This document shows positions 3,478-54,782 of a stretch of 64,000 nucleotides of DNA, piece by piece. Location of the stretch: positions 376 to 64,375 of the forward strand of contig SVIH01000011.1 of NCBI GenBank assembly GCA_015069575.1, written 5' to 3'. A model generated the notes under the pieces. That model was given only the letters and a program-made list of their open reading frames with translations, had not been told where the DNA came from and did not search any database. Every line of letters starts with the position of its first letter. The stretch's first letter is position 1. The stretch comes from Clostridiales bacterium (GTDB lineage Bacteria > Bacillota > Clostridia > Christensenellales > QALW01). The translations under genes and the position numbers were made by a program.

Positions 3478-3755
3478 TTAACCAAACCATTATAACTTGA
3501 ATCAGTTGTAAAATGTAAAATTTACGTTTTAATTGTGTCAAAGCCCTTGATAATATTTCCTATATTGTCTGCGGGCTTTTCCTTGTTAAAACAAAAATTT
3601 TATCATTTTTCAATCTGCGACCTTAAACTGCTCAATTTTGAGCAGATTTAGGTGCGAAGGACGCGTTAAGACAGGTCGCCTTAAAAGGACGCCAAACCGA
3701 AATATGCCTAAATTCAGCCGTTTAAGGCTGGTTCAAGCTATCATGGTTTGGTTAC
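3478..3755 (-). mobile_element. MITE-like palindromic element, copy A (full length, inverted relative to copy C)
   Basis: TTAA-CCAAACCATTATAACTTGAATCAG ... CTGGTTCAAGCTATCATGGTTTGG-TTAC. About a dozen substitutions and no indels versus copy C in my manual alignment. Lies between grpE and dnaK. Confidence 0.8.
3512..3541 (-). promoter_or_regulatory. promoter-like boxes inside element copy A, directed at dnaK
   Basis: Reverse strand reads TTGACA (3541-3536), an 18-nt spacer, then TACATT (3517-3512). A TATAAT also lies in the terminal repeat (3494-3489). Confidence 0.35.
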
Positions 3756-4280
3756 TTGAACCATTGAATAGCGAATTATTTTGTCACCCATTTTGTAGCC
3801 TTTTTCAAATACGGTGGCTACAACGCCTTTTTCCTGTCCTTCTTGCGCAGGAATTTGCATCATCGCGTTATGGCAGGTAGGGTCAAAAGGCTTATTTAAT
3901 GCTTCAATTTCCTGAACGCCTAAATCGCTTAAAGATTTAAGCATCTGTTTAAGTACGATTTCAAGGCCTTCCATTAAAGAACCTGTTGTACCGTTTTTGC
4001 GTTCAGTTTCCAACGCGCGTTCAAGGTTATCTAAAACAGGTAAAAAAGCTTTTACTGCTTCAACCTTACCGTCGCTTAATGCATCTGCCCTTAATGTAAC
4101 ATTTCTTTTTCGATAGTTATCAAAATCTGCTTGTATTCTTTGGGCAAGCGCAAGATATTCTTCTTCTTTAGAAATAGGCTGTTCTTCTTTAACTTCTTCA
4201 ACTGACTGATAATCGTCATTTGCGTTGGTTTCTTCAACTGTCTCTTTTATTTCTTCTTCTTTTTTCTTACTCATCGTCAT
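3741..4280 (-). CDS. grpE: nucleotide exchange factor GrpE
   Basis: GrpE C-terminal signature (GYKMGDKIIRYSMVQV) and operon position. The last codons ACC AAA CCA TGA lie inside element copy A. Confidence 0.95.
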   Translation of the reverse strand: MTMSKKKEEEIKETVEETNANDDYQSVEEVKEEQPISKEEEYLALAQRIQADFDNYRKRNVTLRADALSDGKVEAVKAFLPVLDNLERALETERKNGTTGSLMEGLEIVLKQMLKSLSDLGVQEIEALNKPFDPTCHNAMMQIPAQEGQEKGVVATVFEKGYKMGDKIIRYSMVQVTKP

Positions 4281-6789: not shown

Positions 6790-6817
6790 TTGACTAAATT
6801 TTTTTAGATGGTATAAT
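6790..6817 (+). promoter_or_regulatory. sigma-A type promoter reading through element copy B into cca
   Basis: TTGACT (6790-6795), 16-nt spacer, TATAAT (6812-6817). Confidence 0.55.
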
Positions 6818-6821
6818 TAGG

Positions 6822-7014
6822 TTAATCAAACCATTATAGTTTGAACCAGCCTTAAACTGCTGAATTCAGGCATATTTTGGTTTGTCGTCCTTTTAAGGCG
6901 TCCTGCCTTAATGCGTCCTTCGTACCTAAATCTGCTCAAAATTAAGCAGTTTAAGGTCGCAGATTGAAAAATTTTACATTTTACAACTGATTCAAGTTAC
7001 AATGGTTTGGTTAA
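6822..7014 (+). mobile_element. MITE-like element, copy B (short variant, about 85-bp internal module missing)
   Basis: TTAA-TCAAACCATTATAGTTTGAACCAG ... CTGATTCAAGTTACAATGGTTTGG-TTAA. Colinear with copy C except for one internal deletion. Confidence 0.8.
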
Positions 7015-7028
7015 GGCAGGTGAAATAA

Positions 7029-8186
7029 ATGCTTCCTAAAAATGCGGAATACATATTAAATAAGTTAAACGAAAACGGGTTTCAGGCATATCTTGTTGGC
7101 GGATGCGTCCGTGATAAACTGCTTAATAAAGTTCCTGAAGATTACGATATAACCACAAACGCTCTTCCGCAGAAAATTGCAGAAGTATTTAGTGAATTTC
7201 ACCTTAACTTAAAGGGGCTTAAACATGGCACTGTTGGTGTAATAATAAATGGTGAAATGATTGAAATAACCACCTACCGTATTGATGGGGATTATCTGGA
7301 TTCGCGCAGGCCCGAAAACGTAACTTTTACCCCAAATTTAAAGGAAGACCTTGCCCGTAGGGATTTTACCATAAACGCTATGGCGATGGATAAAAATGAA
7401 AATATCATTGATGTTTTTAACGGTAAAAGCGATTTAAAAAACAAAATTATCCGAACGGTAGGAGACCCTGAAAAAAGGTTTAACGAAGACGCTTTAAGGA
7501 TTATGAGGTGTTTGCGTTTTGCTTCTAAAGAGGGCTTTGTTATACAAGAAAACACCTTAAATTCTTTAAATCAATTAGCGCCCAATTTAAAGCATATTGC
7601 TTATGAACGTATTTATACCGAACTTAAAAAAATGCTTTCAGAGGCTAATGCACATAATATAATAAGGAAAACAAAGCCTGTTTTTGAAAACGTTTTTCCT
7701 ACGCTTAACACAGAAAAATGGGATATAATATGTAAACATATAAAGGAATGTGAATGTTCATGGCTTTTATGTTTGGCGGTGCTTTTAATAAATAGCGACA
7801 CAAAAAAAGAACTTGACCGCTTAAAAGTTGAAACCAAAACAAAGTGTTTAGTATTAAACTTAAAAGAATTGCTTAATAAAAAGATTTTAAACGATAAAGC
7901 GTTTTTGCAAAAAATGATGTGTGAACATTCAAAAGAACAAATCCTGTTTTTATGTTCATACTTAACCGTAATAACCAAAGAAGATTATAATAAAAACGCT
8001 ATTTTAGCATCAAAAGGAATAACAAGTGTAAACGAACTTGATATACAAGGGCAAACGCTGAAAAATCTTGGTTTTAAAAGTTATAAAATAAAGGAAGCAT
8101 TAAATGTTTTATTAAATGCGGTTATTGAAAACAAGGTTAAAAACCAAGAAACAGATTTAATTGAATACATAAAAAAACAGGCTTAA
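7029..8186 (+). CDS. cca: CCA-adding tRNA nucleotidyltransferase (PolyA polymerase family)
   Basis: N-terminal nucleotidyltransferase motif (AYLVGGCVRDKLLNK...DYDITT) and RDFTINA. Confidence 0.85.
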   Translation: MLPKNAEYILNKLNENGFQAYLVGGCVRDKLLNKVPEDYDITTNALPQKIAEVFSEFHLNLKGLKHGTVGVIINGEMIEITTYRIDGDYLDSRRPENVTFTPNLKEDLARRDFTINAMAMDKNENIIDVFNGKSDLKNKIIRTVGDPEKRFNEDALRIMRCLRFASKEGFVIQENTLNSLNQLAPNLKHIAYERIYTELKKMLSEANAHNIIRKTKPVFENVFPTLNTEKWDIICKHIKECECSWLLCLAVLLINSDTKKELDRLKVETKTKCLVLNLKELLNKKILNDKAFLQKMMCEHSKEQILFLCSYLTVITKEDYNKNAILASKGITSVNELDIQGQTLKNLGFKSYKIKEALNVLLNAVIENKVKNQETDLIEYIKKQA

Positions 8187-8205
8187 TTTAAGCCTGTTTT
8201 AATTT
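8172..8205. terminator. bidirectional terminator (cca, and the ancestral prfA end)
   Basis: Stem ACAGGCTT / AAGCCTGT flanked by A- and T-runs. Confidence 0.75.
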
Positions 8206-8240
8206 TTATTCTTCGTTATTTAATTCTCCTGTACTGCCTG

Positions 8241-8518
8241 CTAACCAAACCATTATAAATTGAACCAGCCTTAAACGGCTGAATTTAGGCATATTTCGGT
8301 TTGTCGTCCTTTTAAGGCGACCTGCCTTAACGCGTCCTTCGCACCTAAATCTCACCAAAATTGAGCAGTTTAAGGTCGCAGATTGAAAAATGATAAAATT
8401 TTTGTTTTAACAAGGAAAAGCCCGCAGACAATATAGGAAATATTATCAAGGGCTTTGACACAATTAAAACGCAAATTTTACATTTTACAACTGGTTCAAG
8501 CTATACTGGTTTGGTTAA
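8241..8518 (+). mobile_element. MITE-like element, copy C (full length, reference orientation)
   Basis: CTAA-CCAAACCATTATAAATTGAACCAG ... CTGGTTCAAGCTATACTGGTTTGG-TTAA. The right end overlaps the 3' end of prfA. Confidence 0.8.
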
Positions 8519-9544
8519 AATCAATGCGGAAACAATTTCGTCCATAGCGCCTTCTAAAAATGCGTCTAATTTATAAAGGGTAACGCCAACGCGGTGGTCG
8601 GTAACACGGCCCTGTGGAAAATTATAAGTGCGGATTCTTTCACTTCTGTCACCTGAACCAACCTGACTTTTTCTCGCCTCAGAGTATTCGTTGTCAGCGA
8701 TGGTTTTATAGTAATCGTAAACGCGTGATTTTAAAACTTTCATGGCTTTTTCGCGGTTTTTAATCTGCGAACGCTCGTCCTGGCAGTCAACCTCAATGCC
8801 TGTTGGCAAATGTATCATTCTAACGGCAGATTCAGTTTTATTAACGTGCTGACCGCCTGCGCCTGAAGAACGGTGTGTTTCAATTAATAAATCTTCAGCG
8901 TTTATAGTAATATCAATATCGTCAGCTTCAGGCAACACTGCAACGGTTGCGGCAGAAGTATGAATTCTGCCGCCTGATTCCGTAACGGGCACGCGTTGCA
9001 CGCGGTGAGCACCGCTTTCGTATTTCATATGGCGGAAAACTTCTTTGCCTGAAACTAAGCATACGGCTTCCTTAATACCGCCGATTTCCGTTTCGGAAAG
9101 GCTTGTTATTTCAAAGTTCCAACCTTTTTTTTCGGCATATTTCATATACATTCTTAAAAGGTCAGCACCAAAAAGAGCTGCTTCTTCACCGCCTGTACCT
9201 GCGCGGATTTCCAGAACAACGTTTTTATCGTCATCAGGGTCACGGGGTGCAAGCAATTCCTTTAATTCCTGCTCTAAAATTTCTTCCTTTGGCTTTAACT
9301 CACTTAATTCAATTTCGGCAAGTTCATTCATTTCTTCATCGCCTGATTCAATTAATTCGTTTGCATCGTCAATGCCTTTTAATACAGCAGTATATTCTTC
9401 ATATTTTTCCTGTATCTCTGATAAAACAGCGTGCTCCTTTGCAAGCTCCTGCCAAAGTTTTCTATCATTTATAACGTCAGGCTCGCTTAATTTCTGATTA
9501 AGCTCCTGAAAGCGTATTGACATTTCTTCAAGTTTTTCTAACAT
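8501..9544 (-). CDS. prfA: peptide chain release factor 1
   Basis: GGQ motif ([16 protein letters not shown]) and a PxT-type region (RVPVTES). The last five codons including the stop (TTA ACC AAA CCA GTA TAG region) are element sequence. Confidence 0.96.
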
Positions 9545-53037: not shown

Positions 53038-53706
53038 ATGGAAAAATATATTAATATTTTAAAAAAATGCCCGCTTTTTTTAGAAATAAGTGATGAAAAC
53101 TTGCTTGTAATGTTAAAGTGTTTAGGGGCAAAAGTGGTAAGTTTTGATAAAAAGTATACTGTGTTTACCAATGGCAAACCGTTAAAGCATATTGGAATTG
53201 TGCTTACAGGAAGTGTTCAGGTGATTCAGGTTGATTATTATGGCAACCGTAATATCGTTTCAAACAATGGTGTTGGCGAAATAATTGGCGAAGCTTTTGC
53301 CTGTGCCCAAGTTGAAAGTTTGCCTGTTTCAGTTATTGCGAACGAAAAAACGGATATTATGCTGATAAAAAGCGATCACATTCTTAAAACTTGTAAAAAT
53401 AACTGCGGATTTCACCAAAAACTTATATACAATCTTATGAAAGATATAGCGTTAAAAGCGGTGTTGTTTCATCAAAAAATTGAAATAATATCTAGGCGTA
53501 CTACAAGGGAAAAGCTAATGGCGTATCTTAATTTGCAAGCAAAAAAAGCGGGGAAAAGTGAATTTACAATCCCTTTTGATCGCCAAGAACTTGCCGATTA
53601 TTTAATTGTAGATAGATCAGGGCTTTCAAACGAAATTAGCAAACTTCGTGAAGAAGGTATAATTGAAAGCCACAAAAATTATTTTGAATTAACCAAACCA
53701 TTATAA
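53038..53706 (+). CDS. Crp/Fnr family transcriptional regulator
   Basis: cNMP-binding-like N-domain and C-terminal HTH (RQELADYLIVDRSGLSNEISKLREEGII). The last codons (TTA ACC AAA CCA TTA TAA) are element sequence. Confidence 0.9.
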   Translation: MEKYINILKKCPLFLEISDENLLVMLKCLGAKVVSFDKKYTVFTNGKPLKHIGIVLTGSVQVIQVDYYGNRNIVSNNGVGEIIGEAFACAQVESLPVSVIANEKTDIMLIKSDHILKTCKNNCGFHQKLIYNLMKDIALKAVLFHQKIEIISRRTTREKLMAYLNLQAKKAGKSEFTIPFDRQELADYLIVDRSGLSNEISKLREEGIIESHKNYFELTKPL

Positions 53707-53756
53707 CTTGAACCATCCTTAAACTGCTGAATTTAGGTATATTTTGGTTTGGTTAA
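53689..53756 (+). mobile_element. MITE-like element, copy D' (68-bp mini derivative)
   Basis: The left roughly 57 bp of the element are joined to the terminal GGTTTGGTTAA. It shares its right TTAA with copy D. Confidence 0.7.
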
Positions 53757-54030
53757 CCAAACCATTGCGACTTGAATCAGCCTTAAATGGCTGAATTTAG
53801 GCATATTTGTGTTTGTCGTCTTTATAAGGCGACCTGCCTTGTTTCATCCTCCGCACCCAAATCTGCTCAAAATTGAGCCGTTTTAGGTCACAGATTTTAA
53901 AATGATAAAATTTTTGTTTTAACAAGGAAAAGTCCGCAGGTAATATAGGTAATATTATCAAGGGCTTTGACACAGTAAAAACGCAAATTTTACATTTTAA
54001 AACTGATTCAAGTTACAATGCTTTGGTTAA
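53753..54030 (+). mobile_element. MITE-like element, copy D (full length, most diverged)
   Basis: TTAA-CCAAACCATTGCGACTTGAATCAG ... CTGATTCAAGTTACAATGCTTTGG-TTAA. Colinear with copy C including the internal module. Confidence 0.78.
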
Positions 54031-54782
54031 CCTAAAAGCACATCAAATATAAGCATTAAACAAAAACCAATTAAAAGCGCGTATGTTGCGCCCCTTTGGC
54101 TTCCGTGTCCGTGAGTTTCAGAAAGCATTTCATCAGAAATAACATAAAGCATCGTACCGCCTGCAAAACTTAATGCAAAAGGCAAGATAGCATTAGAAAG
54201 GCTTACTGCAAAGTAACCGATAAATGTGCCAACAACTTCAATAAATCCTGTAAATGAAGCAATCAGCAAAGTTTTTTTAGGCTTTATTCCTGCTGCAAGC
54301 ATCGGCGCGATAATAACCATGCCTTCAGGAATGTTTTGTAGTGCAATACCTATTGCTATCATAATGGCGTGGGAAATGTTCCCTGAACCAAAGCCAACGC
54401 CGGAAGCAATACCTTCAGGCAGATTGTGAATTGCAATAGCGGTAACAAACAAAATTACTTTGTTAATATTTTTGTTGTTGTGTTTTTCCTGATCGTGCCC
54501 TGCAAGGTTGTGAAGATGGGGAACAATTTTATCAATAATGTTTAAACATATAGCGCCTGTAAAAATACCTGCCACTACTAAAAATACGCCCCATTTTTCT
54601 TTAAAAATTTCTATTGAAGGCAGAATCAATCCTATAATTGCTGCTGCAAGCATAACGCCACAGGCAAAAGAAAGAATAATATCAGATAGATTATGGGATA
54701 GCTTTTTAAATAAAAAGCCAATTATTGCGCCTAATACGGTGGCGCCGCCTACACCAAGTGCGGTAATTAAAACAAGTTCCAT
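54027..54782 (-). CDS. ZIP family metal (zinc) transporter
   Basis: 8-TM ZupT-like protein with HNLPEG and QNIPEG motifs. Its stop codon is the element-flanking TTAA. Confidence 0.9.
   Translation of the reverse strand: MELVLITALGVGGATVLGAIIGFLFKKLSHNLSDIILSFACGVMLAAAIIGLILPSIEIFKEKWGVFLVVAGIFTGAICLNIIDKIVPHLHNLAGHDQEKHNNKNINKVILFVTAIAIHNLPEGIASGVGFGSGNISHAIMIAIGIALQNIPEGMVIIAPMLAAGIKPKKTLLIASFTGFIEVVGTFIGYFAVSLSNAILPFALSFAGGTMLYVISDEMLSETHGHGSQRGATYALLIGFCLMLIFDVLLG

Follow-up and report, generated by a model that had tools for sequence, protein, structure and literature searches.

The prfA locus

The window, by which we mean the whole 64,000-nucleotide stretch of Clostridiales DNA analysed here, carries prfA on its minus strand (8501-9544). 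In its present form the gene encodes a 347-aa RF1 that ends ...SALILTKPV at a TAG stop (8501-8503). We found the RF1 domains PCRF (Pfam PF03462, E = 2.5e-73) and RF-1 (PF00472, E = 3.2e-43) in this protein, together with the motifs PVT and SGAGGQH (GGQ), and its best match among solved structures is RF1 1zbt (E = 1e-122). Directly upstream of prfA lies prmC, both in the window and in those related loci that reach that far. The convergent neighbour is cca (7029-8186, plus), a gene of the CCA-adding enzyme / poly(A) polymerase family. A bidirectional intrinsic-terminator hairpin with T-runs on both strands is common to cca and the original end of prfA; a preliminary description of this DNA, which had placed it at 8177-8197, was right about its bidirectional nature, but the true span is 8174-8200.

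On the minus strand the 3' end of prfA reads ...GCA TTG ATT TTA ACC AAA CCA GTA TAG, the same letters that had been reported before, with the stop at 8503-8501. Downstream of the Leu343 codon the prfA reading frame consists of the inverted repeat at one end of a MITE of 272 bp (copy C, 8244-8515, plus), which has no coding capacity and folds into a stem of its terminal inverted repeats and, in its interior, two long hairpins. The gene runs into the terminal inverted repeat at 8491-8515 (minus, ACCAAACCAGTATAGCTTGAACCAG), which supplies the codons ACC AAA CCA GTA TAG, or T-K-P-V-stop (8515-8501); the distal repeat lies at 8244-8268 (plus, ACCAAACCATTATAAATTGAACCAG). A target TA stands on either side of the element, the distal copy at 8242-8243 and the prfA-proximal one at 8516-8517, where it makes up the second and third bases of the Leu343 codon TTA (8518-8516). 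Beyond the element the far flank reads TA GCA GGC AGT ACA GGA GAA TTA AAT AAC GAA GAA TAA, with its last base at 8206, so that the orphaned original 3' end of prfA (8206-8241, minus), consisting of 11 codons (AGSTGELNNEE) and a TAA, is now untranslated.

These boundaries differ somewhat from those in the preliminary description, which had started the element at the TTAA and assumed a duplicated tetranucleotide. The sequence past Leu343 does belong to the element, but the element proper is 8244-8515 with the TA outside it, and the actual duplicate is the TA (8242-8243 and 8516-8517), TTAA and TTAG being different. The reconstructed prfA is identical under both kinds of duplication.

The insertion also altered the gene's own stop: a TAA, in whose place some relatives have TGA, became a TAG with C as the next base. 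Read-through of this TAG would give 50 extra residues up to the next in-frame TAG. Termination at UAG depends on RF1 only.

Reconstruction of the uninterrupted gene

Deletion of 8244-8517, that is, the element and one TA, yields a 354-aa RF1 ORF ending ILAGSTGELNNEE*. The reconstructed junction is ATT T(TA) GCA GGC AGT ACA GGA GAA TTA AAT AAC GAA GAA TAA, with the remaining TA in brackets, and the reconstructed stop (8206-8208) falls 5 bases from the terminator hairpin. The longer in-frame RF1 (354 against 347 aa) and the 11 further open codons closing at a TAA near the terminator, both proposed in the preliminary description, were confirmed by this reconstruction, and the length was confirmed by the homologues as well.

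An open frame of 11 codons is by itself not rare by chance in DNA of 36% GC. What decides against a chance continuation is the comparison with the nearest homologues, whose tails agree with the reconstructed one at every residue, and on this ground we rejected that reading. In a search of 5.8 billion protein clusters the nearest RF1s were 354 aa long at 95-97% identity. Four of the five top matches carried exactly ILAGSTGELNNEE at the C-terminus, the following ones were one residue different, and LAGSTG was present in 47 of 116 full-length relatives. It had been considered beforehand that element-free RF1s might stop at ...LIL; the nearest relatives turned out the opposite way, at 354 aa.

Empty prfA sites were also recovered as DNA. 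Five contigs that encode the nearest RF1s (L006-L010) contain an uninterrupted prfA ending ATT TTA GCA GGA AGT ACG GGA GAG TTA AAT AAC GAA GAA TAA, which differs from the orphaned tail in the window by three nucleotides, all synonymous. Filled and empty sites were compared directly at the junction, as MAFFT pairwise alignment put the gap in the wrong place. The terminator follows directly after the empty site in all five contigs, the same as in the window, and a convergent cca stands beside it in L006-L008 and L010, L009 being too short to reach that gene. Together, homologue tails and empty-site DNA bear out the earlier proposal of an insertion into coding sequence. The exact reconstructed 354-aa protein was absent from a collection of 15 billion proteins, and hence no empty allele of the window lineage was seen there.

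Other arrangements of the region were met in two related lineages. The prfA genes of L001 (7065-10705) and L005 (2991-4215) have TGA as their stop, and 4 nt beyond it, ahead of cca, extra genes begin that code for proteins of the HAD_SAK_2 and YAcAr types and for a small HTH protein. This indicates that the prfA-cca junction is a variable spot in this clade. P0126, from an ENA contig of 1268 bp, is a 355-aa RF1 that is one residue off the window protein over the first ~308 residues and quite different in its C-terminal 45 residues; the contig is recombinant or chimeric.

A MITE family in uncultured Clostridia

The 26-mer at the prfA junction has six matches in the window with at most three mismatches, against none expected, and the inverted-repeat matches pair as element ends at 3481-3752, 6825-7011, 8244-8515 and 53692-54027. 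The terminal inverted repeats measure 25-27 bp and both arms pair in the consensus fold. Among 185,579 GTDB species genomes the inverted repeat was found only in three 'Clostridia bacterium' MAGs, at four MITE-sized loci, and with the four window loci these make up the eight elements compared below. TA stands at 16 of the 16 ends of these elements, whose flanks are otherwise unrelated. Full copies are 272 bp each and split into two subfamilies; over 276 aligned positions they show 12-40 differences, an identity of about 86-96%. The RNA fold comprises the terminal stem and two long hairpins (-95 kcal/mol, z = -8.3), and four of its base pairs are preserved through double changes between the subfamilies. 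Empty sites among relatives were recovered as DNA for prfA, and are deduced for grpE from homologue C-termini and for the region upstream of cca from L001. The element is therefore a bacterial MITE by every structural measure, namely size, inverted repeats, TA duplication and dispersed copies, and the family is undescribed.

A further property of the family concerns translation. Each of the 16 element ends presents stops in all three entering frames, as TA/A, as xTA ACC AAA CCA nTA TAR, or as xxT AAC CAA ACC AnT ATA nCT TGA, and an invaded ORF consequently gains six residues at most.

IS200/IS605-type elements are without terminal inverted repeats or target duplication and insert 3' of a fixed tetra- or pentanucleotide. 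A palindrome-associated element of this type, inserting by a TTAN tetranucleotide without duplication, would fit the resemblance of the flanks TTAA and TTAG to such targets as well as the hairpin-rich nature of the element, and the tetranucleotide named in the preliminary description would point to it. Long terminal inverted repeats are nevertheless present here, and TA is the one feature that the unrelated flanks share at every end; with both inverted repeats and TA duplication in place we rejected this assignment as extremely unlikely.

Searches of RNA and mobile-element collections returned nothing for the MITE. Rfam at the gathering threshold gave tRNA only across the whole window, the permissive threshold gave no match for the MITE in 8100-8650, and BLASTN of the MITE against plasmid and phage collections gave zero matches. 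An intron was rejected, there being no Rfam match.

Within the element we noted signals that might act on transcription. A promoter-like site (TTGACA, 18-nt spacer, TACATT) at 8455-8484 on the plus strand lies close to the element end and faces outward, where it would give antisense transcription into the 3' end of prfA; its equivalent in copy A faces dnaK. In prfA-sense orientation, an internal GCCC...GGGC hairpin followed by UUUUCC is terminator-like.

Other genes ended or flanked by MITE copies

The remaining window copies also sit at gene borders. Copy A (3481-3752, minus, with TA at 3479-3480 and 3753-3754) lies between grpE and dnaK. The grpE gene (3741-4280, minus) ends QVTKP* inside this copy and would end QVTI* with the element removed, an ending shared by more than 60 grpE homologues. 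Copy A sits in the hrcA-grpE-dnaK-dnaJ operon, and transcription of dnaK must therefore either pass through the element or start in it.

Copy B (6825-7011, plus) is 187 bp long owing to an 85-bp internal deletion and lies upstream of cca, whose start codon is at 7029. It is preceded at 6790-6817 by a promoter-like site of near-consensus sequence (TTGACT, 16-nt spacer, TATAAT), and since the copy lies between this site and the cca start codon it is probably part of the cca 5' UTR. The related contig L001 has no MITE upstream of cca, as judged from the intergenic gap and an nhmmer scan.

Locus D (53692-54027, plus) consists of a 62-bp mini copy (53692-53753), a TA and a full copy (53756-54027), an arrangement suggesting that one copy inserted into, or beside, another that was already there. 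A Crp-like gene (53038-53706, plus) ends ELTKPL* inside it; without the element it would end ELT*, giving 219 aa, the modal length of the family, with T as its last residue, where L is usual. The TAA stop of the ZIP transporter gene on the other side (54027-54782, minus) is composed of the target TA and the first element base. Locus D (53689-54029) thereby parts convergent Crp-like and ZIP genes whose ends originally overlapped.

Outside the window, a D-2-hydroxyacid dehydrogenase gene (L015:269-1285, minus) ends NQTIVT* inside a MITE copy, by way of the third entering frame. In all, long ORFs are closed by 5 of the 16 element ends, and all three frames are used. TA dinucleotides occur at about 81 per kb in the window. 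The bias towards gene ends is likely to reflect survivorship, because a compact and TA-rich genome leaves as tolerated targets the DNA between genes and the final few codons of a gene.

Proposed mechanism

We put the probability at roughly 0.93 that a MITE landed at the TA of the prfA Leu343 codon and swapped the last 11 residues of RF1 for four that the element encodes. The junctions, homologues and empty sites establish the insertion itself, its boundaries, the ancestral sequence and the persistence of the filled allele under purifying selection. In this course of events, a non-autonomous 272-bp transposon inserted at the TA of the Leu343 codon and duplicated it. Translation would then read four codons into the element (TA/ACC AAA CCA GTA TAG) and stop, and the original 11 codons, the TAA and the terminator were pushed 274 bp downstream, leaving those codons untranslated. 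RF1 thus went from 354 to 347 aa and its end from ...ILAGSTGELNNEE to ...ILTKPV. The prfA transcript may now end at the element-internal hairpin and U-tract or at the old terminator, and RF1 function was presumably retained.

Mobilisation would have been in trans, and the TA duplication points to a DDE transposase of the IS630/Tc1-mariner type. No transposase turned up among 20 window ORFs compared with Pfam, and no full-length IS with matching ends emerged from the inverted-repeat scan of GTDB species genomes, which gave only the four MITE-sized loci. The JGI metagenome collection gave zero hits both to the inverted repeat and to a conserved internal motif, and is evidently without these organisms.

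Persistence of the filled allele

The filled allele is not confined to one assembly. About seven contigs encode exactly the 347-aa RF1; their sources are at least three JGI samples and one NCBI MAG, and another JGI sample yielded a variant with an identical junction and one residue changed. The window-lineage copies, five in number (the window, L002-L004 and L013), are all filled. A second lineage, represented by L012 from Logan run SRR6958884, has the same prfA insertion in the same orientation, although about 10% of its prfA positions differ from the window, and it has the same unusual repeat variant, CAGTATAG.

These copies bear on whether the junction might be an assembly artefact, a repeat-induced metagenome chimera laid over a gene that is really uninterrupted. 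MITEs do break assemblies, and the Logan contigs L012 and L018 both terminate inside the element. However, both junctions and the TA duplications are identical in four JGI samples (L002, L003, L004 and L013), the exact protein is also in the NCBI MAG record, and in the divergent lineage the identical left junction is joined to flank variants specific to that lineage over a span no longer than one k-mer. We regard an artefact as scarcely credible.

L018, which is from the same run as L012, shares two further insertions with the window, in grpE and upstream of cca. In a neighbour-joining tree of about 2.9 kb the L012 lineage is sister to the window lineage with 62% bootstrap. The three shared insertion sites and this tree favour a reading in which the prfA insertion shared with L012 goes back to one ancestral event. 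The very low divergence of the element, on the other hand, argues for a recent insertion.

The L012 copy (L012:3401-3453) has G as its first element base, GCC in place of ACC, so that its RF1 ends ...ILAKPV and Ala344 is kept. The G variant of the repeat end also occurs in an unrelated copy, L016, and a compensatory change in L012 is indistinguishable from a pre-existing variant.

Between the two filled prfA alleles, window and L012, dN/dS is 0.054 at a dS of 0.50, which is not distinguishable from pairs of intact alleles (0.014-0.092). This low value indicates that prfA is still constrained, and from comparisons of this kind the 347-aa gene looks functional. Six of 58 window ORFs, prfA included, end in TAG. 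The tolerance claimed in the preliminary description accordingly stands in an indirect form, suggested by the roughly seven filled contigs, the dN/dS of 0.054 and the six of 58 ORFs that need UAG to be read.

A different explanation is that the prfA with the insertion is in decay or has been weakened, with UAG handled by a paralogue or the need for RF1 relaxed; the element would then have been tolerated in a gene that had ceased to matter. The lost tail does contain clade-conserved residues, the protein is the shortest of 116 relatives, and the visible genome amounts to 64 kb, which leaves room for a second prfA elsewhere. Set against this are an intact ORF with all domains and motifs, a dN/dS within the range of intact alleles, the conserved synteny with prmC, and the finding that about 10% of window ORFs end in TAG. 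We consider decay very unlikely, and a functional prfA that took up a MITE in its last codons remains our preferred reading.

Why RF1 may tolerate the change

The position of the insertion within the protein offers a probable reason for this tolerance. When the window RF1 is aligned to E. coli RF1 structures, the alignment reaches no further than residue 343, where the insertion lies. In the AlphaFold model of an intact homologue (P0001) the last helix spans residues 335-347, and pLDDT is 74 for residues 341-350 and 38 for 351-354. Judged from this model, the event would cost RF1 roughly one turn of helix and an acidic tail with little order. Thus the insertion was probably tolerated as it sits where the universally alignable RF1 core ends, with the catalytic and decoding parts upstream, and adds no long extension, because the inverted repeat stops every entering frame.

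Some fitness cost is possible. Ala344 is at least 90% conserved, LAGSTG is common in the clade, and the C-terminal region is the shortest on record in our comparison, with 26 residues after the TLY motif in the window RF1 against 28-39 in 116 full-length relatives.

Likeness of copies at the same site

Copies that occupy the same site in different lineages can be far more alike than the DNA around them. L014:1312-1587 and L017:1021-1296, from two GTDB species, show two differences in 276 positions (99.3% element identity), whereas their flanks are 82-87% identical and the adjacent ORF has a dS of 0.68 and a third-position distance of 0.31. The grpE copies of the window and L018 differ at one of 95 positions, and the prfA copies of the window and L012 at two of 52, both with flanks about 10% divergent. 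Copy B, with five differences in 68 positions between the window and L018, is without excess conservation. Copies at different sites are 4-14% divergent, within and between genomes alike. A literature search found no precedents for MITEs conserved beyond their flanks.

The possible causes of this likeness include selection on the element, movement of filled alleles, turnover in place, and sampling. That the copies are not inert, but are selected RNA modules, or lie on filled alleles crossing species, or undergo excision and re-insertion, we consider doubtful on present comparisons. If they were RNA modules, the copies would have been co-opted as structured 3'-end or intercistronic RNAs under strong selection; if alleles are transferred, filled alleles would pass between species independently of their flanks; and if elements are excised and re-inserted, the split end of prfA would stay in use.

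The state of the orphaned prfA tail (8206-8241) touches on the last of these. The tail has zero unique nucleotide or amino-acid changes relative to empty-site relatives, and it is intact although the insertion appears common to a lineage at a prfA dS of 0.50. One could therefore suppose that the insertion is reversible or maintained, with precise excision or recombination with empty alleles restoring prfA and with selection acting on the orphaned tail. The unchanged 36 nt, the sharing of the filled state across that distance, and the TA repeats that bracket the element, whose exact loss would restore the frame, are all in keeping with this. Yet a window-lineage empty allele was not found, the reconstructed protein being absent from the 15-billion-sequence collection as described above; every one of the five window-lineage copies is filled; and 36 bases are a small sample. 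A reversible state is on balance improbable.

Implications and comparison with known systems

The locus amounts to an unusually clean natural experiment, in which a core translation factor can be read to the base both as it was before the event and as it is afterwards. It shows that an RF1 deprived of the final turn of the C-terminal helix and of the acidic tail can persist in wild populations under strong purifying selection. The three-frame stops at the element ends help to explain how MITEs settle in the last codons of housekeeping genes such as prfA and grpE in compact genomes. For the annotation of MAGs from this clade, short C-termini of the form ...TKP[VL] or ...NQTI[IV]T, or with an altered stop, should be read as transposon scars and not as lineage-specific features.

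The type of event is already known and no new mechanism is involved; what is new is the undescribed family in Clostridia and the prfA target with its ancestral state recovered exactly. According to a review, repeats generally avoid essential genes (PMC3184786). MITEs fused to ORFs have nonetheless been described for Correia, ERIC and YPAL elements and for the RPEs of Rickettsia (PMC2229807). As far as they are described in the latter source, which cites Ogata et al. 2000, RPEs are mobile palindromes inside conserved, functional coding genes; their insertions keep the reading frame and are translated into an additional peptide segment, whereas the window MITE stops translation within 0-6 codons.

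The Correia or NEMIS elements of Neisseria have inverted repeats of roughly 24 bp, TA termini and strongly folding transcripts; they are co-transcribed with neighbouring genes and can affect their expression, and some copies are fused to ORFs (PMC2229807). The window MITE resembles them in its inverted repeats, TA ends, strong folding and ORF fusions. Correia elements are, however, 107-155 bp long and proteobacterial, and have an IHF site in their long form. The RUP of Streptococcus pneumoniae is thought to be mobilised in trans by IS630-Spn1 (PMC2229807), and mobilisation in trans by an IS630-family transposase is proposed for both RUP and the window MITE. RUP differs in being 107 bp long, mostly intergenic and without recognisable sequence similarity to the window MITE, for which no IS with matching ends was found.

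A parallel in position comes from Coxiella burnetii, in which QMITE1 and QMITE2 overlap the 3' ends of functional genes including ubiB, mutT, recN, ruvB and others (PMC5896051). These insertions alter C-terminal residues with little change in protein size, which led the authors to regard C-termini as tolerant (PMC5896051). The window MITE shares with the QMITEs both the 3'-end overlaps and the same survivorship-type pattern and explanation (PMC5896051). The host belongs to another phylum, the sequences are unrelated, and QMITE2 has direct repeats of 7-9 bp in place of TA. Compared with the QMITEs, the prfA case stands out in that the ancestral tail could be recovered exactly from empty sites and in that the gene concerned encodes a translation factor.
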